Assembly: GCA_040954595.2 (NCBI GenBank) | Contig: CM082578.2 | Location: 2,276,831-2,340,830 of the forward strand | Source of the DNA: Balanoglossus misakiensis | Taxonomy: Eukaryota > Animalia > Hemichordata | Direction: 5' to 3' | DNA length: 64,000 nucleotides | Part shown: positions 13,119 through 64,000 of the stretch, in pieces | Numbering within the stretch: the stretch's first letter is position 1 | Layout: every line of letters begins with the position of its first letter | Translations under genes and position numbers: made by a program | Notes under the pieces: model-generated | The model's input: only the letters and a program-made list of their open reading frames with translations | What the model was told of the DNA's origin: nothing | Databases searched by the model: none

Positions 13119-13219
13119 CCATTTGTTGTATTGTACTTTTGCTTTAAGCGTCATTGATCACATTTTTTGTGGATACTGACGCTATACAAATAAATTATTA
13201 TTATTATTATTATTATTAT
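11193..13219 (+). mobile_element. 5'-truncated L2-like non-LTR retrotransposon, copy 2
   Basis: Near-identical to 6200-8223 with the same junctions and same frameshift. Confidence 0.92.
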
Positions 13220-17128: not shown

Positions 17129-17290
17129 TTTATATTTATATTTTACGTGACATGTGTTACTTTTTTCGGTGTCTTGTTTATCAGTTAGTTTTTGTTTTGT
17201 GATTTAATTGTTTTTATTGTTTCCCAGATCTGTAAGTGGGTTTGCCCGTTGATCTGTGTAATAAATAAATATATAAAAAAAAAAAAAAAA
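14276..17290 (+). mobile_element. CR1-group non-LTR retrotransposon, copy 1, truncated at the start of ORF2
   Basis: 7-bp TSD GTAAGCT (14269-14275, 17291-17297). AT-rich/poly(A) tail. APE endonuclease + RT ORF. Confidence 0.93.
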
Positions 17291-31132: not shown

Positions 31133-33866
31133 TTAAGACTTTTCTACCAAAATACAAGAAGTATTGCTGGTCCAAACAAGCTTCCCAAGTTTAACATTCA
31201 ATTTTCTGATGCTGTGTTTGACTTGATTGTAATCACAGAAACTTGGTTGCACACCTCGGTTAACTGCAGTGAACTCCTAAACAATCAGTACTCTATTTTT
31301 CGTCGCGATCGTGATGCATCGACCAGTTGCAAGTCCCGTGGTGGTGGAGTACTCATCGCAGTCAGATCGGATATAGAAGCTCGTCAGTGCTCTGATGTAG
31401 ATTCTAATGCTAACATTGAAATTATATGGATCCAACTTAATCTTTTAAACACCAATCTGTATCTAGGTGTTGTTTATATGCCGCCAAACTCCAACCTTCA
31501 GTCATATAACATTCTAGACGATAGTATTGACCGTATAAGTCATCTTTGTACGCCTAATGACTCCATTCTGCTGCTTGGTGACTTCAATCTACCAGATATC
31601 TCTTGGGTTCCTGATGTGGAGTTGGACCACTTTGTTCCTAGTGCATGGTCCTCTGCTTCTTCTGAGAGATTTATTGATACTCTTAACGAACACAATCTGC
31701 TCCAAGTAAACGGTCATCCCACCTGTAATGGTCATACACTTGACCTGGTTTGTTCAAGCTTCACCAAGATTTCCGTTTCAGTAAGTGAATCTGTTATTCC
31801 ATCTGACCATCTTCCACTCGAATGTGACATTAATCTGGCTGCTCCAAAGCGGGTTTCTTACCCTGATCTTTGGGTCTACAACTATAAGAATGCGGACTTC
31901 GACCACTTAAAAACCAATATTTCCTCACTCCCTTGGACTGCACTTCTAAACAGCTCCAACATCGACGATGATGCTGAACTTTTCTATGACCTCCTACAAT
32001 CGGCTATAGACGACACAATTCCTAAAGTCCGCATAAAAAGAAGAAAGTTCCCCCTGTGGTTTGACGCCGATCTAATCTCCCTTGTAAGGGAGAAGGAAAT
32101 CGCGAGACGCCAGTATAAACGCACTCAGACTCGTTCCGACTACTCTGTCTTCTCGCGTCTGCGTGCTCAACTTAACCTAGCCAAGGACGTACGTTATCGG
32201 GAATATCTCTCAGATGTCCAGGCCTCCATCCACGAAAACAGCAAACGTTTTTGGGGTTATGCGAAATCCAAGCGTAAATTGACTCTGAACTCTTTTAACT
32301 TTGAACTTAACGGCAAGCAGTCTAACTCAGGCTCCGAAGCTGCTCAACTTTTTGCCGATTTTTTTGCCTCTGTTTTCACTGAAAACAATGACCCTAATTT
32401 ACCTGAGCTTAATTATCCTTGCTTTGGGCAACTCTCACATGTCAATATCAGTACCCAGAGTATTGAGAAAGCCATCGCATCTCTTGACTTGAACAAAGCC
32501 AGTGGCCCGGATGGTTTATCCGCCCGTGTCATTAAACACTGTTCAGATGTTATTGTTGTCCCCCTCCAGATTTTATTCCAAAAATCAATTTATCTGGGAC
32601 ACTTTCCTACCAAGTTCAAACAGGCCAATGTTGTCCCCATTTTTAAATCTGGTCGCCAATCCTTTGTTGAGAATTACCGCCCCATCTCCTTGTTGCCTCT
32701 TTTTGCTAAGATTTTCGAAGCTGTTATTGTCCCTCATATCTACCAGCATGTTCGACCAAATATATCCATTTATCAGCATGGATTTGTTAAAAATAGATCT
32801 ACCACAACAAACTTAGTGGCTTACACTGATTTCATTTCAGCTTCATTGAACAACAAAGAACAGGTAGATTCAATCTACACTGATTTTAGCAAGGCGTCTG
32901 ACAGTGTCTGTCACACACTACTGCTGTACAAAGCCGCCAAATTTGGTATATGTGGCAATTTGCACAGCTGGCTGGCGTCGTATCTCCATCTCAGACAACA
33001 GAGGGTGGTGTTTGGCAGTCACTCGTCAAACAGCTTCACTGCTACATCGGGGGTCCCACAAGGTTCACTCTTGGGGCCACTACTTTTTGTAATGTATATA
33101 AATGATATATAACTGTTAGATATTTCTGCAAAGCTCAGCATTCAATCAGTTCAAATTCATCAGTTTCACCCTAAAGAAAAGGGTTATTTCATCTACTGAC
33201 TACTCTATCAATGGCACTCCCCTTCAACGTGTTTCTGTAATCAAGGACTTGGGCATATACCTTACTTCTAATCTCAATTATTCTTTTCACATAAATAACA
33301 CAGTATCCAGAGCCTTCAAATCTCTGGGTTTTATTAAGCGCCTCTGCCAGCCTTTTAATGACATGTCCGCAATTATTTCTCTATATTTTGTTTATGTAAG
33401 ATCTATTCTAGAGTATGGCTCTGTTGTGTGGTCACCCCACCAACAGGGCCTGTCAGACAAGATTGAGCGGGTACAAATTAAGTTTGTGAAGTACATTTGT
33501 TGCAAACTCAATATTCACTGCAGCAGGTCCAGCTACCCTATTTATTGTAGATTACTGAATATCCCAATGTTATATAACAGAAGATTCACCCTTGACATGT
33601 GTTTTTTATACAAAATTATCCACTCACAGTATGATTCACCTGGTATTTTAAATCAAATATGTTTTTATGCCCCTAGTAGAAATTTACGCAAGAAACCCTT
33701 TTTTAAACCCGACTTGTGCTCCGTTAATTGTAGAAAATTCTCGACAATGCTCAGATGCATGTCTGCTTTTAATGAGATTTCTTCTAAATGTAATAGTAAT
33801 ATTTTTTCTACGCTCCACAGATTTAAATCTATTTTATCCAGTCATTTTAATGGTACTGTTCCTTGA
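31133..33866 (+). pseudogene. LINE ORF2 (EN+RT), disrupted
   Basis: ORFs 31214-33112 and 33249-33866. Net 119-bp loss relative to copy 1. Confidence 0.9.
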
Positions 33867-34025
33867 TTTGTATTTATATTTTACGTGACATGTGTTACTT
33901 TTTTCGGTGTCTTGTTTATCAGTTAGTTTTTGTTTTGTGATTTAATTGTTTTTATTGTTTCCCAGATCTGTAAGTGGGTTTGCCCGTTGATCTGTGTAAT
34001 AAATAAATAAATAAAAAAAAAAAAA
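31133..34025 (+). mobile_element. CR1-group non-LTR retrotransposon, copy 2 (defective)
   Basis: Same 5' junction and TSD GTAAGCT (31126-31132, 34026-34032) as copy 1. Premature TAA at 33110-33112 and internal deletion removing YADD. Confidence 0.93.
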
Positions 34026-41683: not shown

Positions 41684-41800
41684 AAGCCTACGGCACGTGG
41701 TATTCCCAGGCGGTCACCCATCCAAGTACTAACCACGCCCAACGCAGCTTAACTTCGGTGATCGGACGAGAACCGGTGTATTCGACGTGGTATGGCCGTA
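41684..41800 (-). pseudogene. 5S rRNA gene interrupted by DNA element (nt 4-120 here; nt 1-9 at 55614-55622)
   Basis: 5S sequence stops at ...tatggccgta (41800) and resumes as gccgtaggcaaac at 55614. Confidence 0.95.
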
Positions 41801-42130
41801 AGTAGTATAGGTTGGAGCCGTAGCACTCTCATTCCTGGAGGAGGAGCTGAGGAGGAGCTGAGGAGGAGCTGAGGAGGAGGAGGAGGCGGAGGAGCTGAGG
41901 AGGAGCTGAGGAGGAGGAGGAGGAGGAGGAGGAGGAAGAGGAGGAGGAGCTGAGGAGGAGCTGAGGAGGAAGAGGAGGAGGAGGAGCTGAGGAGGAGGCG
42001 GAGCTGAGGAGCTGAGGATGAGGAGGAGGAGGAGGAGGAGGAGGAGGAGGAGGAGCTGAGAGGCGGAGGTGTATCACCCCCTAAGGTAAGGAACCCTAAA
42101 TGTTGGGAGGAGGCGGAGGCGATGAGTGGT
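41801..42130 (+). repeat. Left terminal inverted repeat with (GAG/GCTGAG)n tract
   Basis: Inverted match to 55236-55613, including AGGTGTATCACCCCCTAAGGTAAGGAACCCTAAATGTTGGGAGG and GGCGATGAGTGGT. Confidence 0.92.
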
Positions 42131-42755
42131 CACGTCTGTTATTATCGCGTGCGGGCGACATACTGATTGGAGTAGAGAAAACACAACCAACGCACGGTAG
42201 TTCTCATAGATTAACGCGATAACTTGTAATATCGAACGAGACTATGATGGCGTCCATTTTGGATTCCTTCGGACAGGTCCGGCATTTTGCCGTATTTTTC
42301 CAAATATGGAAGCATAGTCAAGCACGAAGATAATCGTTTCGACATCGTAAACTCTCGGACGTTTCAGGGGTCAAAGGTTCAGTCGCTCGACGTCAATGTT
42401 GTATGAAATATTTCACGCGAAGTCAACGTAACCCTTTGCCAAAACCATGACCATTACCCGGAAGTGACACTATTTTTTAGATCGACGGTATGTATTTTAA
42501 GCCACGTTTTATCATTAAAAAGATTTTTTATGATATGCAACGTAATTTTACTGTGAAGTGTGATTCATTGTGTGAAAGTTCAAGCAGTGTTTGCACCAGG
42601 CCGCAGTCAGACTTTCTCGGCCGCGGTCGCTCCATGGTAACGATCGATTGTTTACGTATTACGTAAAAAGAGCGCCCTTTTCAATTCTGCCGACAGCTGA
42701 TGGTAGCCGGCATTTGTTTACATTTCCGATAATTCCGAATAGTTCATCTTTAATT

Positions 42756-45700
42756 ATGGCTCAAACGTTTGATTTTCATCAACTTGTCCTCAATAGTAGT
42801 TGTCGCATTTGTGGAGATAAAATTCGCTCGTCTGGAGGATCGTCTCGCATTTATAAATGTGCAGATTTTCAGGAGGATTTACGTATTTATTTTGGAATCG
42901 ATTGTCCGGAAAGCAGTGCCACTTACCCAGCTAATTTCTGCCACAAATGCAAAAAGACACTTGGACGTTTGAAATCAGCAACTCTGTCTGGAAAATCTTG
43001 CAGCCATAAAATAGTAATTGCAGAATGGTGCAAACACTCAAGAACTGGTGAATGCCATGTGTGTATCAGGTACAGTAAGAAGGGGGGGGGGGGGAAACCT
43101 AGTAAGCAAAGGTCCCAGTGTACACCTTGTTCCAGTGCTTCTGAAAATGATATATTTAATTCTAAACAAGCAAGCACCAGTGTAGACAGAAATTTAGTGG
43201 AAAGTTTAGAACAGGAAATTACAATGAAAGCTTGTAAATCATTAAAGACACAAATTCCTTTATGTGTGGAAAGATTTAATTCAATAACAGCAAATTTAGA
43301 ATGCCTAATATGCAAAGAGGTTTTTGATGAACCCATACAGCTAATGTGTGAGGGTCATCATATCTATTGTGCTCCATGCATAAAACACTGGGTGAATAGC
43401 TCGCCAACATGCCCAATATGCAGGAAAGACATCACACCCACAAGTATATTGCCTATTCCTGTGCACTTGATGAATTTGATTAGTGACCTAAAGCTATCCT
43501 GTGACTATGCGTGGAAAGGGTGTACAGCTATTGTTAAACTTAGTGAATTGAAAGATCATGTTAAGAATTGTCAGGTTAAGTGAATTGTGAATTGAAAGAT
43601 CATGTTAAGAATTGTCAGGTTAAGTGAATTGTGAATTGAAAGATCATGTTAAGAATTGTCAGGTTAAGTCCACGCCTGTACCAATCTTTGTTGAGCATGA
43701 TTATGCCCTCTTGCCACAACCATCACCAATAGAACCAGTAGAAACTCCACCACAGATCAAGACTGCTCCAATTGTAAGGAGAGAACAATCTCATCATGAC
43801 GTTCATAAGGCTGTCCAAATATTGCTTGACACTCCAAACATTGAACAGACCCCTGGATTTGAAGACCTGACAACTAAGTGTGTAAAGCGAAAGCTTGATC
43901 TAACAGATGATAGTAGGAAAGGAGCACCTGTACGATTCAAAACAAAAGGAGGGGTAAGTGTGTTTTCATGTATCAATTGGCAGTATCATTTCATAAATCT
44001 ACATTGATTTTAACACTACAGTTATCTACATTGTGAAATCAGTTTGCATTTGCATCATGTGTCTTTCATATTATAAATATGAATTGTTACATACTAGTAA
44101 ATACTTTTTTTTTTCTTTCTACATTTACATTGCTACAACCAGCCATTCCATATGACATATACACCTCACCCTAAGACAAAGAGTAGTACTGCATCTTCAA
44201 CAACAAAAAGAAGCAGAGCTCAACACATCGAGTCTCAAAGGAGGGTTTTGAGTGGGGAGGATGATCTCTCCAACAAAACACAACTACAGACTGAATGGAG
44301 GAGAGCAAACAATGTTCTCAAGACCACACCACAAATCCCTCCTGGTGCAGGACTCGCAGTCAAAGCAGACCTCTCAATCCCATGGAACAAGTTGAGAAAA
44401 TTGCGGAGGTATGTTTTGAATTTAGGTACATTGACATTAACCATGAAATATAAAAGGCAAAATTTATTTTACTGATTTACTGATTCATGAGTACAACATA
44501 ACCAAAAGTTGTCATGATGATATCACTCTCATGTGTATTTTCTTCATGTTTACATTTGCCATTGCATTATGTACTTGTTGTATTCATAGGTGGTTGAAAA
44601 AATGGAAAATAAATTTTCCTGGAGAGAATAGGGATAGGGAAGAAGCAAAGAGTCTTCTTGGAGAAATTGAAGTGTCAGCCAAGAACCTACTCCTTCAGTT
44701 CCATGTGAAAAATCCAGTGACTGGAAAACTTGGCACTGAATGTAGACTGGCACCAAGCATTAGCACCAACTTGGAGAGTATTTGTTTCAGATACCTTCAG
44801 GAACTAGATAGGTAATTTGTAATATAATTCACTAAGAGATCAATTGAAAACAATGATAAAACACATACATACATACATACATACATACATACATACATAC
44901 ATACATACACACATACACACACACACACACACACATACATAGAACAAGTTGTGTACTGTCACATACAGTGACTTATATGTATGATAGTAATATAAAATTA
45001 TACTACCAGTAACACCGTAGTACATAATAAGTAATATGCCTAAGTTTCATGCCTTGCAGTCAGATACATGTATAAGTAATCCAGGTTACTGGAAGATAAA
45101 TTCGTGTTTGAAGAATTAAATTGTCTAATTTCAGAATAGCTCAATGTTGTGGAAGCATATTTAATAAATGTCCAATCTCTCAAAGTGATTGAACAGTTGA
45201 TGCATACAATTTAATATCTTCACCTCTGATTAAAAATTCTTTCAATTCAGGTCTGACAAATTGACGTGGCATGGAGCAGTAATACCAGAAGAAGAGATTT
45301 GGATTAAAGTCGGTGGTGATAAAGGAGGCGATCTAATGAAGACGTGTTTGGAGGTGTGCAATGTTGAACACCCAAATTCCATCAAGAGCACAATAATCCT
45401 AAACATGTATCGCGGCACTGATACCTACTACAACCTCCAAACAGCAACTGAACATCTAATGTCTGAAGTAAACCATCTTGATTATTCTAAATGGAGGTAT
45501 GCTTTATCAAAATTTCAAGTCATACTGTATTTAATCAAACAGTTTGATCTGACCCTTGCTTGTATGGGCAATACATAACAGGTTTAGATAGTCCCCCTCA
45601 TATATTCATCCATTGGTGATGTAGCCTGAAATTGCAGATACCATAAATATATCATAGAACACATCTTAACATGTTAATACTAAAATAGTTTACACATTTT

Positions 45701-48700
45701 ACCTGTAAGCTAGTGACTCATACATCACCAATTTACCTACCTGTCTCATACCTGTCTTCTGTAATCATCAACTGTTTGGCCCATTCATTCCCTCTTTTAC
45801 ATGCACCTATTCTATACACATTTTAAAATTGAGTTTCAATCATTTATTAAGCACATACTGACTTACATTTTTTTGTCTATTGTTTATGCAGAGATTTCAG
45901 AATCAAGGTGCATGTAATGGGTGATTATGAATATCTAACCAAATTGTATGGACTGAGTGGACCAAATGGTAAGTGCTTGATAATTGTAAGATGTACATTG
46001 TAAAAATGTTGTCACATGTACATGCACACAGTCAGTCATCATTATTCTGGTTAACTGTCTTTGATGGTGTTGTGAACCTGTTTGTTATTCTGTTAAGGTG
46101 CATACTATTTCATGAGTAAGTTAGTTATGATCAGATTCATCTATTTTTTTTTTTTTATCCAAGGAAAACACTTTTGTTTGTGGTGCCTGACAACAAAGGA
46201 CATATGTTCCATGGTACCTGAAGACAGACCTCAAGTCCAGGCTAGGACCTTGGAATCAATCATCTCTGACCATAATAAATATGAAAAAGATGGTGGTGGA
46301 GTGTTGAAGAAAGCAAAACTGTACAACAACTGTGTCCGCACTCTACTCATAAGTATCCCAATAGAAAGAGTGAGTACATACTGCCAATTTTAAAGCAATG
46401 TGCTATAATCAACCTTATTATATCACACAGTCTAACCAACCCACATGAAATGCAACTATATATATGATGTAGGGGGGTCTGTTGACTTCTTCTCCAGTGC
46501 AATGTGTATTCTCTCCAATATTATAGCATTCATTCTTCCTAGTCTTTTGTTTAATGGAAAGAAAAGACAGAAGTGACTTTTATCCATTTATGACAGTTAC
46601 TTGCATTATTGGATGTTTGTCTATTTTACAGGTAGCAGTGCCAGGGCTGCACATCAGTCTCGGCGTATATCTTATGTTCTTTAAGATGCTTGAGTCTGAG
46701 TGTATAGAACTTGACAAGAAAATATACAAGAAACTAAGCACAACAGGGGAGGTGGATGAACCTGTCATTCAACCTGCAAACTTTAACACATACATTGAAA
46801 CTATAGAAAAGGTATAGTCAGTTTATATATTAGTACATTGTATATTTACACATTTTACACAAACCTACATACGGATTACACATGTTATCAAACATTATAA
46901 AACTTGTGTGAAATTACATTCCATCACAATGTTACTATGGATTTTTTTTCTAAAAATCACTTTTGTATCTTGTCTGAGAGATACTGTTTCATATAATTGT
47001 CAAAAATCTGTTTGTCATTGACCATTGTGTCTAATGTAGCATAGATTTTTAATGTTTATCAACAGAAAAAGTATTAAATAAGTAGTAACATATTTTCATT
47101 ACTTCACATAATGTAGGTTCTCAAACTGACATCTGAGTCTGAGGATCTAAGGGAACAAGCAGAATGTATTGAAACTGAACTTATCGCCTTTGGGTACCTC
47201 GATGAGGATGACAAAGACGATGTACCCTTGGGTGAAGTTCATCGACTGAAAGAGGAAAGAGTCGAGTTACTGTGTAGTGCTGAGGAGAAGGTAATAATCT
47301 TTTGGGTAATACTGAACATACAATGATTAGGTGACCAGCATTCTGCAACCCTACAATTACACAAACGCTATAAGCCAGTGATCAAGATAGTGAACTGTTG
47401 TATAGCTTTTATGAAGTGTTCAGTTTTCAAAATTGATGAGGAACAAAACAAATTATAACTAGGTTGCATGAAGTTCATGTTTTATTAGGATTCTGTGATT
47501 CACATTGATAAAATATTCAGCTATTTCAGTTTCAACATAAGTTACAAATAGTAATACCTTGTTTAGTGATATTTCCTATCTAAAGATGTAGTGACTGCAA
47601 CTTTTTAACCATGATCTCATTGATATTTCTAGGAAATTGAAGCCAGGGATTTAGACAGTTTGTTACCTACTGAAGTAGGTTATTGTTTTAGAGCACTAGA
47701 TAGGACATTGGCCAGTATAAAAGTACACAGGCAGGCATACCATGGGCGTTCATTTGTTGGTAATCATGTAGATAGGTGTTGTAAGGTTTGTCAGCATCAA
47801 ATTATCCTGCATGCATGCTTTTCACTTCATAGTCAGTGTATACGTGTCTGAGGTTTTCAAGAAACTTCCCTTCTGTCGAAATACATTAGTACTGATGTAC
47901 TGATGTAACCACCATTAACTGCTCTCTCTAATTGAGAATTTGGTTAATTTTATGTGATCAAGGATCAAAATATTATTAAAGGGTGATCTTTTTATGACAT
48001 TTCAGTGCTTGCAGATTGTAAACAGGTTATTAACTGGCTAGGATTTTGTCATTAAATTTGCTGTTTTGTGAATGCTATAAATGCATAGTTGCATTCTTCA
48101 TGCCAAATAATAAGTATTATTTCATGTCTTTTCTCTTTGTTTAGCCCCAGCATGTTGAGAAGATTTGCTTAACTCCAGTAACTGTGGTAACAGATGTTTG
48201 CCCAGAGCTTTTAGAGGACGCCGAGTATATATATGACAAGTACCAACCACTCTTCATGTTCTTTGCCAACTGTCACAATATATATAACCTGTGTAGGCCA
48301 TTAACTGGTGATGAAATAGAATCCTTGAGTAAGTATAAAATAACTAGACTATTCTGTTACCCTAGTGTTTGAATTATCTTGTTGATTGAAAATAGTGTAA
48401 AATACTATAATTATATTCTTTACACATACAGTCAAACCTGTCTATAGTGACCAGTCAAGGGACTTTACCAAACTGGCCTTTATAGACAGGTGGTCTTTAT
48501 AGACAGGTTAATTTATACACATGTAAATTGTACAGGGACTGTAACTAAGTGGCCACTATATAGAGGTGGTCACTATATAGAGGTGGTCACTAACACAGGT
48601 TTGACTGTATGTGGATTATACGTCATACATGAATTAGATACTACTTTCAAACAGCATGTCCTCACTCTCATTTTATTGCATATACTTACATACATGTAAT

Positions 48701-49001
48701 TCGTTCATACACAATATTCTTTTTTTTTTTTTTTTTTTCATTTACAGGTACTAACATAAGAGGGTTGTTTATATATCTCAGAGTTCATTTTCCCCAAGTA
48801 CCCATAACACCCAAGCTTCACATGCTCGAGGAACATGTTCTGCCTCAGATACAGAAATATGGAGTTGGCCTTGGGTTTTTAGGGGAGAACGGTGTTGAGG
48901 CAATTCATCATAAAATGAATGAATCACTCAGAAACTATGCAAATATGAGTGGAAATATGTCTTTAATAAAATACAACAAGTCAAATAACAAACAATCTTA
49001 A
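42756..49001 (+). CDS. RAG1-like / Chapaev-type DDE transposase, 11 exons, ~1020 aa; exon 1 disrupted by an 88-bp tandem expansion (possible pseudogene)
   Basis: Exons 42756-43953, 44143-44408, 44590-44811, 45251-45496, 45892-45968, 46164-46369, 46632-46811, 47117-47290, 47633-47785, 48145-48328, 48748-49001; all GT-AG and phase-consistent. Chapa/CND motif H-x7-CRICG...FCHKC...WCKH...CHVC, RING finger and following Zn finger. Core motifs KVGGDKGG, MGDYEYL..LYGLSGPNGKHFCLWC, PGLHISLG, QAYHGRSFVGNH, ITPKLHMLEEH, LGENGVEAIH. Confidence 0.85.
43543..43669 (+). repeat. 44-bp tandem triplication inside transposase exon 1
   Basis: gtgaattgaaagatcatgttaagaattgtcaggttaagtgaatt x ~2.9. Introduces TGA at 43581-43583. 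Confidence 0.92.
44861..44941. repeat. (CATA)n/(CA)n microsatellite in intron 3
   Basis: Directly visible. Confidence 0.9.
48429..48607. mobile_element. Tc1/mariner-pogo-type MITE in intron 10
   Basis: TIR CAGTCAAACCTGT...ACAGGTTTGACTG flanked by TA on both sides. Internal repeats of the TAGAGGTGGTCAC type. Confidence 0.85.
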
Positions 49002-49113
49002 CATGAATTACCTCTACATCAAACGAAAAGTGCTAGCCGATGGAGTGTCCACTGTACCGCTGGAATTGTAAGCAGCAAATGTCAAGGTAAGGGATAACAC
49101 TGTAGGCATTTCC

Positions 49114-49115
49114 TT

Positions 49116-49182
<67 letters not shown>

Positions 49183-49184
49183 TT
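49114..49184. repeat. (TTTA)n microsatellite
   Basis: Directly visible. Confidence 0.9.
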
Positions 49185-49757
49185 ACGAGTAATACGTTTT
49201 CTCCTTTTGGTAGAGTTATACAGGAAATAGAGAAGTGTACTCAAATAACAATAAAACAAGGGTCTTGAAAACAGATTGTTTCTGATGATCAGTTTCACAT
49301 GTGTTTGCAGGATGACAACCACGACAGAAAATGTGTGGATTGTATCGATAAAACAACAACAACAACAACAACTTTTATTCACTGGACGACGGTGAAAGAA
49401 GACCTGGTTGAATGTAAAAGGTGATATTGGTGGAAAAGATGGTCCCCAGGTCCATTAATTTGGCCCGAGGGGCAGAAGGGCCTATGAAGAGGTTAAAACG
49501 GATGGAAACAGTACTTCATATGGGCCCGAGGGGCTAAGGGGCCATCATTACAACCCTTTGGGAAACAGTTTTGTTGACTTTCTCATCTTCACACATCATC
49601 ACTATGTATAATACACCCAATACCAAAATGACATGTTGGAGGATGATTTCAAGTTCAACAGCCTAAGCTTTTTTTTTTTTTTTTTTTGTTGTTGTTGTTT
49701 TGTCTTTTTTGTTGTAGTTGTTGTTGTTTGTTTATTTTTTATTATTTTTTTTTTTTT

Positions 49758-49788
<31 letters not shown>

Positions 49789-49809
49789 TTTTTTGTTTAT
49801 TTATTTATT

Positions 49810-49945
49810 TTTGCTCTGCTGTCACTTGTGTCAGCCGAGCTGTAGCAGTAGGTTGATAAGTGTCCTTCCGTCGTCTGTCCATCCGTCCGTCTGTCGTCTG
49901 TCGTCCGTCGTCCGTCAACTTTTGGTATTTCAAACTTCTTCTGAA
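49810..49945 (+). mobile_element. Probable Helentron-associated (HINE/DINE-1/pearl-like) element fragment
   Basis: T-rich flank, short GCTC...GAGC inverted motif, then (CCGT/CTGT/CGT)n tract and caacttttggtatttcaaacttcttc. Pattern resemblance only. Confidence 0.45.
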
Positions 49946-50357
49946 GATTTGCAAATAAATTCCCAAACTCTTTAATTTTGTTTAAAAAATTTGAAATATA
50001 ATAGACATGTATTAAATTGTAATTCACAAAATCAAACGTCAAAGAGCTCTATCGATACTTTAGATAGGTGCCTCAAATTATAAGTTATGACTGTTTATAA
50101 TGTTTATACATTCATCTGAAGAAAACAAAAAGCAGCTAAACCCAACTTTATAATGTTCCTATTCCTTATAAATATTTCTATATCAGTGTGCGGACAGTAT
50201 GTCATATTTACTATATACTAAACCGATGTAGGGATGGCTTATGACAAACATCGTGTAACAGTTTACGGAAGATTTATCATTTAAGGACTTTTTAGTGAAT
50301 GACTTTATTAGGAAATAGACTTATTTTGACTTTGATGTTCACGATGTTGACTTTGTT

Positions 50358-50439
50358 TGTGTGTGTGTGTGTGTGTCTGTGTGTGTGTGTGTGTATGTGT
50401 CTGTGTGTGTGTGTGTGTGCGTGTGTGTCTGTGTGTGTG
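50358..50439. repeat. (TG)n microsatellite
   Basis: Directly visible. Confidence 0.9.
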
Positions 50440-50506
50440 CCCAGTTTCAATAGTTCGGCAAATGATTTTCAATATTGTTCTCGTCTTGTTATTGCTACAC
50501 CTAATA

Positions 50507-50790
50507 CTAGTGTTTAAACCAATAAATCTATAAATTTAACTTGATTCGTCGCTAAATGACATGACTCTTATGCATTCACTCACACACATACAAGCAAAAC
50601 GCCAGATCAGCAACAACAACCATGAACAGTTGTTTTTATTTTCTAAAAACAAACAAACAAACAAATAAACGTATAGCAATTCACAAGATTATAAAACAGA
50701 CAACTGTGGTCAAACTTGAACATTGAATAATGTACAGCATAATCATTGGCAAAGGCACTGCACGGAGCTGTTTGAAAACAGATTCAAATT
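50507..50790. repeat. Direct repeat copy A (3' UTR of ZF gene), paralogous to 53908-54200
   Basis: ctagtgtttaaaccaataaatc...gtttgaaaacagattcaaatt occurs twice. Confidence 0.9.
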
Positions 50791-50795
50791 TGTGT

Positions 50796-53573
50796 TCATG
50801 ATATTCCCATTGGTGTGGTAGATGTATTAATGTTCCCCACTTGGTAGTCGTTTAGAGTATCGGAGGCGTTGCTGCTCAGTGAACTTTGTAAGAACAGTGG
50901 CGCAGTGTTCGCAAGGGTGTTGGCTGGTGTCCTGTTGACCATGGTGTTCGTCAACGTATTGGTCATGGAGTTGATCATACTGGTACTGCTGGTGCTTGTC
51001 AAGGATGACGGTATGGTACTCATCTGCGATACGGTGTTCGACAAACTGTTGGACGTGGTTGACGCCGTGTTGGAGATCTGGTCGCTCGACAGGGTTGAAG
51101 TCAGCAAATCGCTGACCAACTTTTCGTCCGGGTGGGGAGTGCTTAGAAGCTGCTCAATATCCAAGACAGTATCGATTTCGTTCAGAGGCAGATGACTGTT
51201 GTCCAGGAATTGCTCCAGCTGCTGCAAGATGTTGTCGTCTGTCAGCTGCTCTACGGCTGATTGTTGCTGAGTATTGACACTCGGACTTGGTAAGTTGTTG
51301 AGGTTCTGAAATGTAATCAATTACGTAAGAAAGGTGTGAACAGGACTGTTCAAGAGTAGTAATGTTACTTTCCAACATGTACATGTATGAACTACGCAGT
51401 AAACGTTATTCTTCACAGATGCTTTCTTTTGTGAAGAATGTGATAATAAACAGTGCTGGCATAGGGTTTATTTCACGAAGTTTGGTTGATAACACGTCGT
51501 ATTCGAGTGATGTGATTTTAATGACCATGCGACTGTGGTTTGTGTGATCTTACCTGTGTTTGGTTTTGAGTTGGGTTACTTGTGACAGACAGCTTCTTAT
51601 GTATTTTCAAATGACTGGCATGATGTGCTTTTCTTTTAAATACCATGTCACATATTGAGCATTTATATTGGGAATCCAGGCGGTGATGTATTTCCTTTAA
51701 ATGCCGTGCCATGTTGTCCTTTCGGGTGAAGGTAAGGTCACAACAGGGACACTGAAACTGGTCATTTTCATCACCACCGGTACCTGTTTTCTTGTTGTCA
51801 TGCACTCTCTTTTGGTGTCTTGCCAAGTTGTCTTTGCGTGTAAACGTCTTACTACAACTGGCACATGACAGGCGGTTTTCCCCATGGACGGTGTTGATGT
51901 GACGACACAAATCACCTGGTCTGGAAAATGTGCGGGGACAGTGGGGGCACGTTGATCGGCCTTCATCATTCTCCTCACCATAGACATCCGGGCGATTAGT
52001 GGTCTCACGAAGGACCTGTATATAATCTGGTGATGGCTGGTGTTCGGTGACAGCAAGGTGTGTAGACGGAAGTCTGGGAGAGAAAAAAAAATTGCAAGAA
52101 TAAATTTACAAACGACCTTGCAGTCAGATAGACAACCATACATGTTAGAACGAGTACCCCGCCTAAGGTGAATAGAAACACAATCTATTTAAACCTACCT
52201 GATTTGCTTCGGAGAGGACGATGCATCCTCTTGTGTACCCGATGTGTTATTGTTTGGTGTGGTGTCGATTCTACGAGGATGAAAAATATATTACAACGTG
52301 AATAGACGATTGATTAGGTCTTTACATCCTGAAAAAAAAAAAAAAGTCATCACCAGCGACCGACCGACGGTGTGTGTGTGTTTTCATCAAATACACAGGA
52401 TACCCCCGATTACGATAAAATCGAACAAAAACTTACTGTGGTAAACTCTCGCCGGACGTGCGAGCACTGGGTTCTTCATGCTGCGCGCCTAAATCACTTT
52501 CCTCGTTGAGCGATAACACCTGTTGAAATAGCACATCATTCTGTCATTAGCTCTAACTGCTGGCGTGGAGGTATTGCTAATGGTATAACAATGCCTGAAC
52601 ACGCGTGTGCTGTATTAGTGGCGTGTGACTGGGGCGGGGAGAACAGCTACCCCAGCGATTACAATGCAACAATGTAGCAATTTGCTTGCAAGCCCCTAGA
52701 CCGCCAGGTCACATAATCACCGTAACATTTCGCGGGCGTCACTGCTCATCTTCTACGATCGCAACAGGACAATTTTTGAGATTAATTTTTCAATGAAAAT
52801 GTATTTCATCAAACTTGTTGTGATAAAGGGAGTTGAATTTATGTAAAATCGATGAGTGAAAATGATAGGAAATCGTACACTGCAATTCGCGGCGACGAAT
52901 GCACAGCCAGTTGGGTACACATAGAATACACTCACACTCACAGTGAGTGTGAGCCCACTGCGTTCGTTGCGATAAAAATAAAATAAAATAAAACTTCGCA
53001 CGCTGGTTAAAACTCAGTGTAGATAGCATACACTTCCTTGTTTGGCTTATCCTCGTTACCACACTATTCGCCAGTACAATCATGGGGAGAGGGCGTGTGA
53101 CGCTGATAGTCACGCTGCGCAAAATTAGTACATAGGCCTACATGTACAGTGGGATGTACGTGCTACGCGCAGACGATAAGCTCATATATATTCAATGCGC
53201 GCCCATTTTAACGGAGAGAAAATATAGCTTACGAATTACATGAAATATACTGACATAACATCCACAGGGCAGTCCATTTCTTGGAGTACAATATTGTTCA
53301 AAAATGATGTGTTGACTCTTATGTAATGATAATAAGAGAGGACCATAAAAAAATATATATATATGTATATATATAGTACAGATAGTATGTGTTACCCACG
53401 GGCGAAAAAAAGCTTTGGGTGGGATAATTATAATGTGTCATTAAAAATTACTGGGCATTGATCTAAATAATTTACAATGTGTTACTTACCTGGTTATCTT
53501 CTTGGTCTTGTCTTCCATGTTGTCGTTCTAAATTAATTATTGTTTCCCACTGCTCACTCGCGGAAAAGTCCAT
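50796..53573 (-). CDS. C2H2 zinc-finger protein (4 fingers, S/T-rich C-terminus), 5 exons, ~422 aa
   Basis: Exons 53573-53490, 52519-52437, 52270-52199, 52073-51554, 51305-50796; GT-AG and in phase. Fingers CPHC..RHINTVH, CASC..RHQKRVH, CPCC..RHLKEIH, CSIC..SHLKIH. The 5' exons are less certain. Confidence 0.75.
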
Positions 53574-53789
53574 AGTTCCGAACGCAGACGGTATGGATTG
53601 TACGTTGTGGACGAATGAAACGCTACTTCGGTCGGTAGAGGGCGCATTTCAGGATGTAGTAGGTGTATCACCCCCTTAGATTAGTAACACTATAGTACTC
53701 TCCATTTACTTGGATATATTTATCAAAACTACTCAGAAATCACATACAATATCATAATAATAATTAAAATGATAAATTATAACATAACA

Positions 53790-53900
53790 CAAAAGCTCGA
53801 CGCACTCCGCTAGTCATTTTCGGCCGAGAGGTCAAATCGGACGACGGCGGCCCCGTTTGAAACAGACAGTATTCCAGCGGCGTTTTCCCCACCAGATCCA
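53790..53900 (-). pseudogene. Duplicated ~110-bp fragment of ankyrin-SOCS gene (matches 54440-54549)
   Basis: caaaagctcgacgcactccgctagtc...ccccaccagatcca is present at both places, with small indels. Confidence 0.85.
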
Positions 53901-53907
53901 CCAAATT

Positions 53908-54200
53908 CTAGTGTTTAAACCAATAAATCTATAAATTTAACTTGATTCGTCGCTAAATGACATGACTCTTATGCATTCACTCACACACATACAAGCAAAA
54001 CGCCAGATCAGTTTCCATTAAAAAAAACAACAACCATGAACAGTTGGTTTTATTTTCTAAAAAAAAAAAAACAAACAAACATATCACAATTCACAAGATT
54101 ATAAAACAGATAACTTTGGTCAAACTTGAACATTGAATAATGTACAACATGAACATTGGCAAAGGTACTGCATGGAGCAGTTTGAAAACAGATTCAAATT
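53908..54200. repeat. Direct repeat copy B (3' UTR of ankyrin-SOCS gene)
   Basis: Paralogous to 50507-50790. Contains AATAAA on the minus strand. Confidence 0.9.
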
Positions 54201-55096
54201 CACATATCTAACGCCAAATACCGTTTTAGAGTTAGCGGTAACGGTAGTTGACCGATCCCGTGAGGTAACCTGTCGTTCAGACCTATGGATTGTCTTATTG
54301 TGAAGCGGCAAAGGTGCTTTAGAAGACAGGGAGAATTTGATATGTCGATGTTTTGGAGGAACCCGTCTTTTACTCCCCCAGTATTTAAAGCTTCCAACCG
54401 TTCAACGATTGAAACATCAATATTTTGCAGTGTTCTCAACAAAAGCTCGACGCACTCCGCTAGTCGTTCCGGCCGAGAGGTCAAATCGGACGACGACGGC
54501 CCCGTTTGAAACAGACAGTATTCCAGCGGCGTTTTCCCCACCAGATCCATGGTTGCCGGGTTCGCTCCGTACTTGAGCAGGGCTCTCAGGCATTCGACGT
54601 GGGCCAACTCACAAGCGACATGGACGGCCGTTCTTGAAAATCCCAACGAACGACACCCTTTGCAGTTGATATAGCAGTCGCCATTGTAGTCATATGTCGG
54701 AGGGGCCTCCGCCCTATAATTCTCTCGGCTCTGTGCAGTATTCGCCTCACGCTGCAGTTTCTCGTCGATGGCACTCCTGCAGTGGTCGAACTTCTTTCTC
54801 GCGTAAAAGAGAATCTTCTCCACAATCTGGTGTCTGTCCCACCTCACAGCTAGAATGAGATGCGAGCAACATCGTTTTGATACATCCAGCGCCTCTGCCA
54901 GATGATATTCCAGAAGGTATTCCACGTAGTCGATATGGTTGCACTCAACGGCCAGTGCCAGCGCATCGGCCGGCGTGAAAAACCTGGCGTCGCTCTTCTC
55001 CTCCCAGTCGAACACAACGCGTTTCCGAACTCTCTCTATCCTTTTTGGTGGCTTGTGTTTTCTGATCGCGGTGACTAGCAAGTTATAAAAAGACAT
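54200..55096 (-). CDS. Ankyrin-repeat and SOCS-box protein (ASB-like), intronless, ~298 aa
   Basis: Ankyrin repeats (ALALAVECNHIDYVEYLL, TAVHVACELAHVECLRALLKYGANP, GKTPLE) and C-terminal SOCS box PCLLKHLCRFTIRQ...IGQLPLPLTLKRYL. First in-frame ATG at 55096. Confidence 0.88.
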   Translation of the reverse strand: MSFYNLLVTAIRKHKPPKRIERVRKRVVFDWEEKSDARFFTPADALALAVECNHIDYVEYLLEYHLAEALDVSKRCCSHLILAVRWDRHQIVEKILFYARKKFDHCRSAIDEKLQREANTAQSRENYRAEAPPTYDYNGDCYINCKGCRSLGFSRTAVHVACELAHVECLRALLKYGANPATMDLVGKTPLEYCLFQTGPSSSDLTSRPERLAECVELLLRTLQNIDVSIVERLEALNTGGVKDGFLQNIDISNSPCLLKHLCRFTIRQSIGLNDRLPHGIGQLPLPLTLKRYLALDM

Positions 55097-55204
55097 TTGG
55101 TCGAATCGTGAAAGCAATCCTCTGATCTCGACGATGTTCGTTAAAAATGCGCATTGACCATATCCACAATACGCCCAAGAGAACGATGGTCATGCAGGGC
55201 TAGC

Positions 55205-55212
55205 CTTTTATA
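55205..55212 (-). promoter_or_regulatory. TATA box of ankyrin-SOCS gene, adjacent to right TIR
   Basis: TATAAAAG on the minus strand ~110 bp upstream of the ATG. Confidence 0.55.
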
Positions 55213-55235
55213 CAGTCTCAAATAGGGAAAGGGCT

Positions 55236-55613
55236 ACCACTCATCGCCTCCTCTGCCTCCTCCGCCTCCGCCTCCTCCCAACATTTAGGGTTCCTTACCT
55301 TAGGGGGTGATACACCTCCGCCTCTCATCGCCTCCTCTGCCTCCTCCCAACATTTAGGGTTGTCTACCTCATGGGTGATAGGCCTCCTCCTCCTCCACTT
55401 CCTCCTCCTCCTCCTCCTCCTCCTCCTCCTCCTCCTCCTCCTCCTCCTCCTCCTCCTCCTCCTCCTTCTCCTCCTCCTCCTCAGCTCCTCAGCTCCTCCT
55501 CAGCTCCTCCTCCTCAGCTCCTCCTCCTCAGCTCCTCCTCCTCAGCTCCTCCTCAGCTCCTCCTCAGCTCCTCCTCCAGGAATGAGAGTGCTACGGCTCC
55601 AACCTATACTACT
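55236..55613 (-). repeat. Right terminal inverted repeat with (CTC)n tract
   Basis: Inverted match to 41801-42130, with an extra internal partial duplication at about 55325-55382. Confidence 0.92.
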
Positions 55614-56568
55614 GCCGTAGGCAAACACTGCTTGAATTTCTACAATTATTAAGCAAACGGAAGCTTCACTAACACATAGGCGTACACACAGAGCACGCGG
55701 CACGATAATTGTGTGCGTGGCCAGCTGATTGACCGACCCTATCTTATAATTTATATGGGAGAGAGCGGTTTTGTCTTGTTATATCCTACAAAAAGTGACC
55801 ATATTAAAGTGGAGAAATAATGACCTGATAATTTGTGTGGCCGATCGACCGTCCCTATCTAAGGCCTATATTGGTATGTTATGCAAGACACACTATTCGA
55901 AATAACGCCTGTCCGACAGTCCGAGACTGGTTGTTTTTCCATCAGACTGATAGTAAAAAAGTTACCAGTCCGACGGACAGGTTGAATTTAGCGTGGAGTT
56001 GACTTGTTTGCGGTATCATAGACGTACGTGACCCCATCGTGACCCTGGCTGTCCGGGATAGCACCACCAACGATATCTTTTAGACCATCCTCTGTTTATT
56101 AGGCCCCTATTGCAATTAATTACCGTCCCTATCTTATATTGGAGGGCACGGGTTTGTCTTGGCATGTTATGCAAAACACTTGAAAGATGAATTTTTTTTT
56201 TTTAAATGACGTTTATGACATACAGATGTAACCGACCCCATAAGGTCCCAATGGTATATATTTACATCATACACCAAATTGGACTTAAAAACCAAAAATT
56301 GAAAGCCGCTGGAGTTTCTGCGACTATGAACTCAACGTAAGCTGGACACTACTCACTCCGAGCCCGACCTGGTAATTTGTATGTTGTCCATCGAGCGCCT
56401 ATAGCTTAGACCTATACAGGAGAGAACGGTTTATGAAGTTATGTTCAACAAAAATATATGATCATGGAATTAAAGAATTTGGAGAAAAAAAATATAATTA
56501 AAAATGGACGTTTACGACGACAAAAAGGAAGACTGTTTAATGCAAAAGTTAAGAAAAAGGAAAAATTC

Positions 56569-57187: not shown

Positions 57188-59115
57188 GGCAGAAAAAATG
57201 TGGAGAAAATCTAGGTTGGAAGTACATCGCCAGATTTACAGGGCCTGTCGGACCGACGTCGTTCGCCTTGTGGATGCTGCTAAAAAGAACCATTATGTCG
57301 GCCTTGTTGACGAGTGCTCAGGTAACCAAAAACAATTATTCAAGGTCGTAAAGGGACTGCTTGGTCACAATAACACATCCACTGTACTACCAAAACATGA
57401 TGATTCTCTGGAATTAGCAAATCGTTTTGCAAAATTCTTCATTAATCGCGTAAAATCACTAACTATAAATATGGGCAATTCCATTCGACATCATTCACAA
57501 CCACAAACTGAATTGAAATCCGATTGTCGCCTTAATGCCTTTGAGCCTACAACTGCTGATGAAATTGACAAGGTTATTCGTGCATCGCCTTCATCTACTT
57601 GTCGCCTTGATCCGATTCCTACCAAGATCTTCACACATTCTGACATTTTACAAGTTGTGTTACCACATATCACAGAAATCTTCAATAACTCTCTGCAGTA
57701 TGGTGTTGTACCTCCTCATTTCAAGGAAGGCGTCGTTAAACCTCTACTTAAAAAGCCATCTCTTGATCATGAAGTTCTCAAAAATTTCCGTCCTGTATCC
57801 AACCTGCCGTTTTTGTCGAAGATCCTGGAACGTATTGTTGCCAAGAGACTGACTTCTCACATTGTCAACCATTCATTGGACGAGCCTTTGCAATCTGCTT
57901 ACAAGCCAGGACACAGTACTGAGACTGCTCTCCTCAAAGTAACAAATGACATTTTGCTTGCTCTTGATGAAAAAAGATATGTTTTCTTGGTATTACTCGA
58001 TCTTTCCGCAGCATTTGACACTGTGAACCATACCATTTTACTCAATCGCTTAAGAGACCGCTTTGGTCTCTCTGATACTGTTCTCATGTGGTTTAAGTCA
58101 TACCTTCCAATCGTAGTCAGTGTGTACTTGTAAATTCCACCCAATCACCTTTTTATCCGCTCGACACTGGGGTACCACAGGGATCAGTTCTTGGTCCCAT
58201 ACTTTTCAATATGTACACGTCTCCATTAGGTGAATTAGTTCAAAGTCATGGTTGTCTTTATAGTTTTTATGCAGATGACTCTTCACTTTATATGTCTTTT
58301 AGTAAAGACAACGCAGCAAAAACTGTTTCAAATCTTGAACTTTGTATATCTGATGTTAGGTTTTGGATGTCTGAAAACTTCTTGTGCTTAAACGATGATA
58401 AGACTGAATTTTTGTTATTTTCTCTGGTATTTTGGGTGATCTGTCTGCTAGAGGGATTTCAGAAATTCGTGTTGGCGATTCTCTGATTCCCGTCCACTGT
58501 CAGGCTAAGAGCCTTGGAGTGATCCTTGACTCTTGTCTGACAATGAAGCCACATATTGGACAGATCTGCTGCTCTGCCACTTTTCATTTACGTCGCATTG
58601 CGTTTATCCGCAAATATTTATCTCATTCTGCTACAGAGCAATTAGTTCATGCATTCATTACGTCTCGAATTGATTCATGTAATTCACTTTTATTTGGGCT
58701 CCCGAAGTATTCAATCAACCGTATCCAACGCGTTCAGAATATTGCTGCTAGAATTGTAACTCGTTCAAAAATCACCTGTCACATCACTCCAATTTTGTAT
58801 CAGTTGCACTGGCTACCTGTTACAGAGCGTATTGTTTTTAAGATGTTAGTTCTCATTTTTGAATCCATTCATAAACTTGGTCCAATCTATCTTTCAAGCA
58901 TGACTAATCTATATGTTCCGTGTCGCAATTTAAGGTCAGCGGATCAGTTCAAACTCTGCCCTGTTCGATCACGCACCAAGAGTTATGGTGATCGTGCTTT
59001 TACTGTTGCTGCTCCAATTCTTTGGAATAATCTTCCACTCACCATTCGCCAGGCACCAGACTTATCTGTTTTTAAATCAAATGTTAAAACTTTACTTTTT
59101 AAATCTGTTTTTTAG
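57188..59115 (+). pseudogene. Reverse transcriptase ORF2 fragment, two frameshifts
   Basis: ORFs 57186-58133, 58211-58486 and 58432-59115. Confidence 0.88.
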
Positions 59116-59216
59116 CCATTTGTTGTATTGTACTTTTGCTTTAAGCGTCATTGATCACATTTTTTGTGGATACTGACGCTATACAAATAAATTATTATTA
59201 TTATTATTATTATTAT
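57188..59216 (+). mobile_element. 5'-truncated L2-like non-LTR retrotransposon, copy 3
   Basis: Same junctions and frameshift as copies 1-2, plus an extra 2-bp insertion near 58410. Confidence 0.92.
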
Positions 59217-61682: not shown

Positions 61683-62626
61683 AAACACTGCTTGAATTTC
61701 TACAATTATTAAGCAAACGGAAGCTTCACTAACACATAGGCGTACACACAGAGCACGCGGCACGATAATTGTGTGCGTGGCCAGCTGATTGACCGACCCT
61801 ATCTTATAATTTATATGGGAGAGAGCGGTTTTGTCTTGTTATATCCTACAAAAAGTGACCATATTAAAGTGGAGAAATAATGACCTGATAATTTGTGTGG
61901 CCGATCGACCGTCCCTATCTAAGGCCTATATTGGTATGTTATGCAAGACACACTATTCGAAATAACGCCTGTCCGACAGTCCGAGACTGGTTGTTTTTCC
62001 ATCAGACTGATAGTAAAAAGTTACCAGTCCGGCGGACAGGTTGAATTTAGCGTGGAGTTGACTTGTTTGCGGTATCATAGACGTACGTGACCCCATCGTG
62101 ACCCTGGCTGTCCGGGATAGCACCACCAACGATATCTTTTAGACCATCCTCTGTTTATTAGGCCCCTATTGCAATTAATTACCGTCCCTATCTTATATTG
62201 GAGGGAACGGGTTTGTCTTTGCATGTTATGCAAAACACTTGAAAGATGATTTTTTTTTTTAAATGACGTTTATGACATACAGATGTAACCGACCCCATAA
62301 GGTCCCAATGGTATATATTTACATCATACACCAAATTGGACTTAAAAACCAATAAATTGAAAGCCGCTGGAGTTTCTGCGACTATGAACTCAACATAAGC
62401 TGGACACTACTCACTCCGAGCCCGACCTGGTAATTTGTATGTTGTCCATCGAGCGCCTATAGCTTAGACCTATACAGGAGAGAACGGTTTATGAAGTTAT
62501 GTTCAACAAAAATATATGATCATGGAATTAAAGAATTTGGAGAAAAAAAATATAATTAAAAATGGACGTTTACGACGACAAAAAGGAAGACTGTTTAATG
62601 CAAAAGTTAAGAAAAAGGAAAAATTC

Positions 62627-62746
62627 AAGCCTACGGCACGTGGTATTCCCAGGCGGTCACCCATCCAAGTACTAACCACGCCCAACGCAGCTTAACTTCG
62701 GTGATCGGACGAGAACCGGTGTATTCGACGTGGTATGGCCGTAGGC
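62627..62746 (-). rRNA. 5S rRNA
   Basis: Matches consensus. Confidence 0.97.
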
Positions 62747-63107
62747 AAACACTGCTTGAATTTCTACAATTATTAAGCAAACGGAAGCTTCACTAACACA
62801 TAGGCGTACACACAGAGCACGCGGCACGATAATTGTGTGCGTGGCCAGCTGATTGACCGACCCTATCTTATAATTTATATGGGAGAGAGCGGTTTTGTCT
62901 TGTTATATCCTACAAAAAGTGACCATATTAAAGTGGACAAATAATGACCTGATAATTTGTGTGAACGGTTTATGAAGTTATGTTCAACAAAAATATATGA
63001 TCATGGAATTAAAGAATTTGGAGAAAAAAAATATAATTAAAAATGGACGTTTACGACGACAAAAAGGAAGACTGTTTAATGCAAAAGTTAAGAAAAAGGA
63101 AAAATTC

Positions 63108-63227
63108 AAGCCTACGGCACGTGGTATTCCCAGGCGGTCACCCATCCAAGTACTAACCACGCCCAACGCAGCTTAACTTCGGTGATCGGACGAGAACCGG
63201 TGTATTCGACGTGGTATGGCCGTAGGC
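63108..63227 (-). rRNA. 5S rRNA
   Basis: Matches consensus. Only 481 bp from the previous copy. Confidence 0.97.
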
Positions 63228-64000
63228 AAACACTGCTTGAATTTCTACAATTATTAAGCAAACGGAAGCTTCACTAACATATAGGCGTACACACAGAGCA
63301 CGCGGCACGATAATTGTGTGCGTGGCCAGCTGATTGACCGACCCTATCTTATAATTTATATGGGAGAGAGCGGTTTTGTCATGTTATATCCTACAAAAAG
63401 TGACCATATTAAAGTGGACAAATAATGACCTGATAATTTGTGTGGCCGATCGACCGTCCCTATCTAAGGCCTATATTGGTATGTTATGCAAGACACACTA
63501 TTCGAAATAACGCCTGTCCGACAGTCCGAGACTGGTTGTTTTTCCATCAGACTGATAGTAAAAAAGTTACCAGTCCGGCGGACAGGTTGAATTTAGCGTG
63601 GAGTTGACTTGTTTGCGGTATCATAGACGTACGTGACCCCATCGTGACCTTGGCTGTCCGGGATAGCACCACCAACGATATCTTTTAGACCATCCTCTGT
63701 TTATTAGGCCCCTATTGCAATTAATTACCGTCCCTATCTTATATTGGAGGGAACGGGTTTGTCTTGGCATGTTATGCAAAACACTTGAAAGATGAATTTT
63801 TTTTTTTTAAATGACGTTTATGACATACAGATGTAACCGACCCTATAAGGTCCCAATGGTATATATTTACATCATACACCAAATTGGACTTAAAAACCAA
63901 AAATTGAAAGCCGCTGGAGTTTCTGCGACTATGAACTCAACGTAAGCTGGACACTACTCACTCCGAGCCCGACCTGGTAATTTGTATGTTGTCCATCGAG

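Follow-up and report, generated by a model that had tools for sequence, protein, structure and literature searches.

A probable non-autonomous Polinton derivative in a 5S rRNA gene of Balanoglossus misakiensis, with a one-ended Chapaev passenger and a zinc-finger protein predicted to bind the element's own arms

How does an element move when its ends are those of one class of transposon and the only transposase gene inside it belongs to another? This question is raised by a 13,813-bp element (41801-55613) in a stretch of 64,000 nucleotides (nt) from the hemichordate Balanoglossus misakiensis (assembly GCA_040954595.2, contig CM082578.2, positions 2,276,831 to 2,340,830 of the forward strand), called here the window and numbered from its first base. 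The element contains three genes, encoding a transposase (plus strand), a C2H2 zinc-finger protein and an ankyrin-SOCS protein (both minus strand). It is probably a non-autonomous derivative of a Polinton (Maverick) that is moved in trans, with an immobilised Chapaev-type passenger, a captured ANKRD9-like gene and a zinc-finger protein that would act on the arms of the element itself.

The element begins with 5'-AGTAGT and finishes with ACTACT-3'. Its terminal inverted repeats (TIRs), 330 bp on the left and 378 bp on the right, consist mostly of a (GAG)n/GCT array and a unique inner part, and their outer 82 bp are 100% complementary. A perfect 6-bp target-site duplication (TSD), GCCGTA, was placed at one site by mapping the surrounding 5S ribosomal RNA (rRNA) repeat unit onto the window: the unit breaks off at base 116 and restarts at base 111. 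An Academ-like TAG..CTA reading of the ends was rejected, as it yields no TSD. Among Mavericks, (AGT)2//(ACT)2 with a 6-bp TSD is the commonest end type, and the elements measure 12.7-24.6 kb, with TIRs 46-1,447 bp long in vertebrates (PMC8097293); a 6-bp TSD and long TIRs are likewise given for Polinton/Maverick in PMC3014272. The end motif, TSD, TIR lengths and 13.8-kb total length of the present element all agree with these descriptions. It differs in that core genes are absent, two of its three genes have introns, and most of its TIR sequence is a (GAG)n array corresponding to a zinc finger that the element encodes.

Core genes were searched for with Pfam (E<=0.05) in the 72 stop-to-stop frames of at least 55 amino acids (aa) between the arms (42131-55235), and no frame matched polymerase, integrase, ATPase, protease or capsid families. 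Only RING, DUF1280, C2H2, ankyrin and SOCS passed the Pfam cut-offs. PHROGs gave no match for 22 of these frames, and a phage search of 49900-54200 gave none. TIR patterns were matched neither in viral contigs nor in prokaryote genomes, and none of the viral-contig pattern matches to the transposase (57), zinc-finger (5) and ankyrin (47) genes was confirmed. Since the ends, TSD, TIRs and size fit and the defining genes are absent, the element is likely a non-autonomous derivative rather than a Polinton proper. An earlier note on this DNA, made from the letters alone, had reported the AGTAGT...ACTACT ends, TIRs of about 330/380 bp and a 6-bp TSD, had found no pPolB, rve integrase, packaging ATPase, protease or capsid frame, and had taken the ends to point to Polinton/Maverick. 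All of these observations hold; the target itself was overlooked.

The window is a tandem 5S ribosomal DNA array of 37 5S copies (identified with Rfam) and a unit of about 1,064 bp, and the element is inserted in one of the 5S rRNA genes. The arms are identical over their outer 82 bp and the TSD is perfect, in an array whose units are about 99.4% alike, which indicates a recent insertion. At 41685-41803 the end of the element replaces the first three 5S bases, and the Rfam score is still that of a full-length 5S (110.8 bits). The internal promoter of the interrupted gene is untouched, so this copy may still be transcribed. As the 5S gene makes up 11% of the array unit, a single insertion in it does not demonstrate 5S targeting. 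The 7-mer GCCGTAG, the TSD plus the next target base, occurs inside the TIR at 41817-41823, a post hoc observation that may be due to chance. Dada-5S, another DNA element, likewise occupies a 5S rRNA gene and is flanked by a 6-bp TSD (PMC8869645), but its target lies near the 3' end of the gene, as against nt 4-9 for the present element, and its enzyme is different. Neither a Dada transposase (among the Pfam frames) nor the Dada-5S target site (by position) was found for the element.

The transposase reading frame of 1,023 aa is open in a predicted model only, which splices out 88 nt of a 44-bp triplication. This triplication forms a removable GT-AG segment and is a candidate intron gained via tandem duplication; a contig from sequencing run X1, described below, stops at the repeat. 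Against Ptychodera XP_070549223 the protein shows 39% identity (906 aligned residues), against Glandiceps XP_077985527 it shows 76% (177 aa), and one of its exons retrieved 658 representatives at E<=0.001. DUF1280 was detected in all 14 long relatives scanned, and RAG1_imp_bd also in 6 of the 14. In the window protein, the N-terminal Chapa motifs (as in PMC1131882) are followed by a RING, with RING and RAG1_imp_bd profile matches at this terminus. The DDE core contains all of the motifs C(2)C, LH and H(4)H, and the spliced model preserves the catalytic motifs. After the last Glu, the tail falls about 20 aa short of that of the full-length Ptychodera relative XP_070571112. Proteins with Chapa and RING and a distant core were assigned to Chapaev in PMC4411706, where Chapa-RING-DDE was also proposed as the architecture of the RAG1 ancestor. 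A profile of the family aligned significantly with RAG1 structures at the N-terminus (independent E-value 4.5e-5) and not significantly in the core stretches (5.5 and 3e3), although the latter align with RAG1 D708, the C/H zinc ligands and E962.

By its predicted architecture the enzyme is of Chapaev type and distantly related to RAG1. It shares with Chapaev, a subgroup of the Transib superfamily marked by Chapa plus RING (PMC4411706, PMC4079192, PMC1131882), the Chapa motifs, the RING, the DDE core with its three motifs and a CAC left end; the window copy differs in having no right end and no TSD of its own and in being enclosed in foreign TIRs. With ProtoRAG and RAGL elements, including those of Ptychodera flava (bioRxiv 10.1101/100735), it has in common a RAG1-like N-terminus and the layout of catalytic residues, but its core similarity to RAG1 is below significance. 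A core more than 30% identical to RAG1, a RAG2L partner, a pair of TIRs resembling recombination signal sequences and a 5-bp TSD were all absent from the element, and the Kelch and PHD domains of a RAG2L partner had no match in the 72 frames. The transposase coding sequence is depleted in CpG (observed/expected 0.30), unlike those of the zinc-finger (0.80) and ankyrin (1.14) genes, which indicates that the transposase has a different history. The term 'RAG1-like' used in the earlier note was therefore too strong, only the N-terminus being significant against RAG1 and both the architecture and the ends of relatives being those of Chapaev. As Chapaev is a known, widespread group, the enzyme has no direct bearing on the origin of RAG1-RAG2.

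The ends that such an enzyme uses can be read from its relatives. A metagenome scan gave 160 pattern matches, from which 38 related loci were obtained. Paired CAC..GTG ends surround the gene in five of the 38 (L001, L015, L016, L023 and L032, with L015 and L016 forming one family), and a single CAC end lies beside it in two others (L002 and L005). Most of the remaining loci are too short to show ends. No AG-type end pair and no zinc-finger or ankyrin gene was found in any of the 38. The locus L023 is a complete element of 4,445 bp with a 4-bp TSD, AGTG. Seven loci have 300 bp of flank on both sides, and three of these (L004, L013, L026) show no clear end. Chapaev ends are described as invariably CAC/GTG, with a TSD of 3-4 bp (PMC4079192). 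The strict end motif derived from the relatives has one match in the 64-kb window, CACGTCTGTT at the first base past the TIR homology, and the probability that the relaxed motif starts at a given base is about 1.3e-4. In the window no Chapaev right end (GTG-3') with TSD stands above chance, the best local score being 26 against shuffled maxima of 18-30. Three right-end candidates at 45268, 46575 and 52607 (8/10 each) drop to 10-11 of 20 and were rejected as chance matches; the last has a 3/4 flank match, yet lies inside intron 1 of the zinc-finger gene.

A FastTree phylogeny with a midpoint root was built from 60 query-anchored rows, 11 loci with fewer than 180 aligned residues being excluded; no named Chapaev, Transib or RAG1 reference transposases are among the rows. 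The window transposase clusters with hemichordate proteins and the CAC-ended L002 (support 0.88). In the same tree L006, L007, L008 and L010 make up a long-branched cluster; these are related transposase frames that contain few introns or none. Two CAC-ended relatives, L015 (1-218) and L016 (1-239), are inserted beside CCCTAA-like repeats. The CAC left end of the window copy and the CAC..GTG ends of the relatives, none of them AG-type, identify the enzyme as a one-ended Chapaev passenger. The statement that the ends do not match the transposase inside is thus upheld, and the alternative offered with it, a RAG1-like enzyme using non-CAC ends, falls.

The second gene appears to be tied to the ends. 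The helices of the four fingers (-1 to +6) are RPGDLCR, RKDNLAR, RKDNMAR and RKAHHAS. In design tables (PMC5260015, PMC7317221), RSDDLVR is assigned to GCG, RSDNLVR to GAG and RSDHLTT to TGG, and the target predicted for the fingers read from last to first is TGG GAG GAG GCG. This 12-mer occurs exactly once in each arm, once more with one mismatch in the right arm, and nowhere else in the window (Table 1). These three matches at one mismatch or fewer all lie in the TIRs (0.13 expected; 0 of 100 shuffles). Of the 1,024 12-mers possible under a null that fixes the Arg-contacted G's, seven are present in both arms. When up to two mismatches are allowed, there are 59 sites in the TIRs, three inside the element and one elsewhere. 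A separate motif, GGTGTATCACCCC, has three matches, in the two arms and upstream of the zinc-finger gene (0.08 expected). No close homologue of the zinc-finger protein was found, the searches giving generic C2H2 proteins with 26-59% identity over parts. A single-sequence fold was of low confidence (predicted local distance difference test, pLDDT, 58.8; predicted template modelling score, pTM, 0.24) and was left unused. Because the predicted site is confined to the TIRs, the gene likely encodes the end-binding factor of its own element and is not random cargo; its description as passive cargo is unsupported, given this site and the motif common to arms and gene.

Table 1. Coordinates of the element, its target and its internal features in the window
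Feature	Position	Strand	Description
Interrupted 5S rRNA gene, 3' part (nt 4-119)	41685..41800	-	Rfam and unit mapping
Left TSD GCCGTA	41795..41800	+	5S nt 4-9, read on minus strand
Left TIR	41801..42130	+	AGTAGT end, 36 unique bp, (GAG)n/GCT array, unique inner part
Motif GGTGTATCACCCC	42068..42080	+	Common to both TIRs and zinc-finger upstream region
TGGGAGGAGGCG, predicted site of four zinc fingers	42104..42115	+	Helix reading with design tables; exact
Chapaev-type left end CACGTCTGTT	42131..42140	+	Adjoins inner edge of left TIR; 10/10 with end of L002
Chapaev-type transposase gene	42756..49001	+	12 predicted exons, 11 GT-AG introns, 1023 aa; Chapa finger, RING, DUF1280/DDE core
44-bp triplication in transposase gene	43543..43669	+	Stop codon unless 88-nt GT-AG segment spliced
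Zinc-finger gene 3' region	50498..50790		90% identical to 53899-54200 (ankyrin gene 3' region)
C2H2 zinc-finger gene	50796..53573	-	5 predicted exons, all GT-AG, 422 aa; acidic N-terminus, Ser/Thr-rich C-terminus
Internal GGTGTATCACCCC copy	53662..53674	+	89 bp upstream of zinc-finger ATG
Partial duplicate of ankyrin coding sequence 54439-54549	53789..53900		96% identity
Ankyrin-SOCS gene, ANKRD9-like	54200..55096	-	Intronless
TATA-like box TATAAAAG	55205..55212	-	Between right TIR and ankyrin gene, 24 bp inside right arm
Right TIR	55236..55613	-	Homology to left arm; predicted zinc-finger sites 55269-55280 (exact) and 55338-55349 (1 mismatch); GGTGTATCACCCC copy 55304-55316
Right TSD GCCGTA	55614..55619	+	Followed by first 3 nt and upstream spacer of 5S gene

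Further copies were sought in three sequencing runs (X1, X2, X3) of one sample, possibly the source of the assembly; the stretch is present in two of the three. Contigs built over 42062-43540 numbered three in X1, 15 in X2 and none in X3, and such contigs drop rare variants. One X1 contig spans the junction of TIR and CAC end and differs from the window by two substitutions and two indels. No loose end is present before 42131, so that no free Chapaev flank is seen. In both of these runs the inner TIR also runs on behind 42120 into a second interior, unlike either arm of the element. Depths in X1 are about 570 for the inner TIR, 194 for the transposase and 161 for the other interior; they fit two arms per composite plus a second type of interior, depth not being a copy number. 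A 1,153-bp X2 contig has only 42641-42842 of the Chapaev 5' region amid unrelated sequence, and appears to be a deleted derivative elsewhere.

Under the preferred reading, in which a Polinton derivative depends on functions supplied in trans, a helper Polinton would provide the polymerase that copies the element and the integrase that inserts it. The inner part of the left arm may have received a Chapaev insertion, after which a deletion would have taken the right end of the Chapaev and whatever lay beyond, possibly including the core genes; the composite would have kept both outer ends and integrated recently into the 5S gene. The zinc-finger protein would most likely be an element-encoded transcription or origin factor that coats the G-rich arms and either drives inward-facing promoters (the TATA-like box lies 24 bp inside the right arm) or acts on the origin. 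The host factors NFI and Oct-1 act in an analogous manner on adenovirus terminal repeats. Parts of this scheme have precedents. PolB-less insect polintons with long interspersed nuclear element (LINE) or gypsy cargo stayed mobile (bioRxiv 10.1101/2025.02.07.637071), and nematode Mavericks have intron-bearing cargo beside the left TIR and a Mutator-like element jumping into a Maverick, the jump of a cut-and-paste transposon into a Maverick being part of the msft-1 model (bioRxiv 10.1101/2022.07.12.499685). These likewise have a transposable element or host gene inside Polinton ends, and in the insect elements mobility survives the loss of the polymerase. They keep other core genes, whereas the present element keeps none, and the passenger here is a Chapaev with one end, accompanied by an encoded, likely end-binding protein.

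A bolder form of this scheme can be put forward only tentatively. The element may represent a family of Polinton satellites without core genes. Its members would each encode a sequence-specific zinc-finger protein for binding their own ends, pirate a helper Polinton for replication, integration and perhaps packaging, and insert preferentially at the 5' end of 5S genes, a position that spares the internal promoter. Their cargo would vary, and could include a Chapa-RING-DDE transposase of the RAG1 superfamily ferried between loci and possibly between hosts.

Several points weigh against a Polinton derivative with a self-targeting zinc finger. An autonomous Polinton with these TIRs was not seen in the contigs, where the second interior is a short loose end only, and with no Polinton protein remnant the ancestry is read from the ends alone. 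A single insertion site is known, and the runs derive from the one sample that may underlie the assembly. The variant copies could have arisen from unequal crossing-over in the 5S array (compare the LINEs at identical unit positions described below), or could be alleles. A perfect 4-bp TSD was found in one of the five paired relatives (L023), the other four pairs having none. The fingers were read after the TIR was known, using an approximate finger-DNA code taken from design tables, one of which (PMC5260015/PMC7317221) gives RKDNLKN for AAG. A long linker separates fingers 2 and 3, and the commonest left-arm variant in X1 carries one mismatch to the 12-mer.

An alternative is that the element is a dead-end wreck: a Polinton in this 5S gene into which a Chapaev jumped and from which deletions took the core, the composite never having moved as a unit and the extra copies being array turnover or alleles. 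The single known site, the LINE inserts that recur at identical unit positions in the array (three and two copies), the internal duplications that indicate rearrangement, and the triplication and short tail of the transposase are all in keeping with this. Outer arms identical over 82 bp and a perfect TSD, in units about 99.4% alike, contrast however with a Chapaev right end lost without trace and a CpG-depleted coding sequence, and the zinc-finger and ankyrin frames are intact; we consider the wreck unlikely.

Less likely again is that the outer element has no Polinton ancestry and belongs to an undescribed AGT-ended TIR family. The zinc-finger protein would then bind the arms and bring in a separate enzyme. 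Recruiters of this kind are represented by TnpA of CACTA and the Myb protein of Harbinger. Such a family would account for the missing Polinton protein remnant and the lack of a TIR match in viral contigs, and the self-targeting zinc finger and the shared motif do link gene and arms. By its end motif, by the lengths of its TSD and TIRs and by its size, the element nevertheless falls within the Maverick range of PMC8097293. Ginger2 has TGT ends (PMC2836005), and Dada-5S has another target. Finally, it is highly improbable that the internal Chapa-RING-DDE enzyme itself mobilises the complete element through the AGT ends and leaves a 6-bp TSD. In favour of this, no other enzyme is encoded inside, the enzyme retains its catalytic motifs when spliced as modelled, and the junction of TIR and CAC is common to the copies seen. 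Against it, the enzyme has its own CAC left end, its relatives have CAC ends (7/38) and no AG-type end pairs (0/38), L023 has a 4-bp TSD, and Chapaev is reported to have invariable CAC/GTG ends with a TSD of 3-4 bp (PMC4079192).

If moved in trans as a Polinton derivative, the element bears on what recognises Polinton ends and on how Polintons remain mobile once they are defective. Polintons with transposable-element cargo and a lost polB are already described; total loss of the core and the self-targeting zinc finger are new. In the literature searched (titles and starts of abstracts, with supplements, Repbase Reports and subscription papers outside its scope), no paper describes a Polinton inserted in 5S genes, one whose ends enclose a Chapaev or one that encodes a self-targeting zinc finger. 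Within the same scope, no end-recognition factor is named for such an element, and a four-finger protein with its predicted site only in the arms of its own element would, if true, be the first. The element also offers one concrete way for a Chapa-RING-DDE gene to go on moving after its own mobility is lost. The locus thus says less about RAG origins than the earlier note had read from it, and more about end recognition by core-less Polintons.

The ankyrin-SOCS protein shows 57% identity to Ptychodera flava XP_070579129 and 44% to Glandiceps talaboti XP_077990138, and its gene is most simply explained as a captured host gene; its product may act as a Cullin-5 adaptor. For this gene and for the transposase, the nearest named relatives come from Ptychodera and Glandiceps, in keeping with an enteropneust (acorn worm) host. 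The duplications around it are listed in Table 1. Elsewhere in the array, three 5'-truncated LINE-type copies with reverse transcriptase frames and an ATT tail (6200-8223, 11193-13219 and 57188-59216) occupy the same spacer position of the 5S unit, with about 227 bp of spacer lost at each. Two copies of a second LINE (14276-17287 and 31133-34022), one of them with an endonuclease-reverse transcriptase frame of 950 aa, share one spacer position, a 10-bp duplication and a poly-A tail; this shared position possibly reflects spacer targeting or array amplification. A shortened 5S unit with a 481-bp period is found at 62482-63444.

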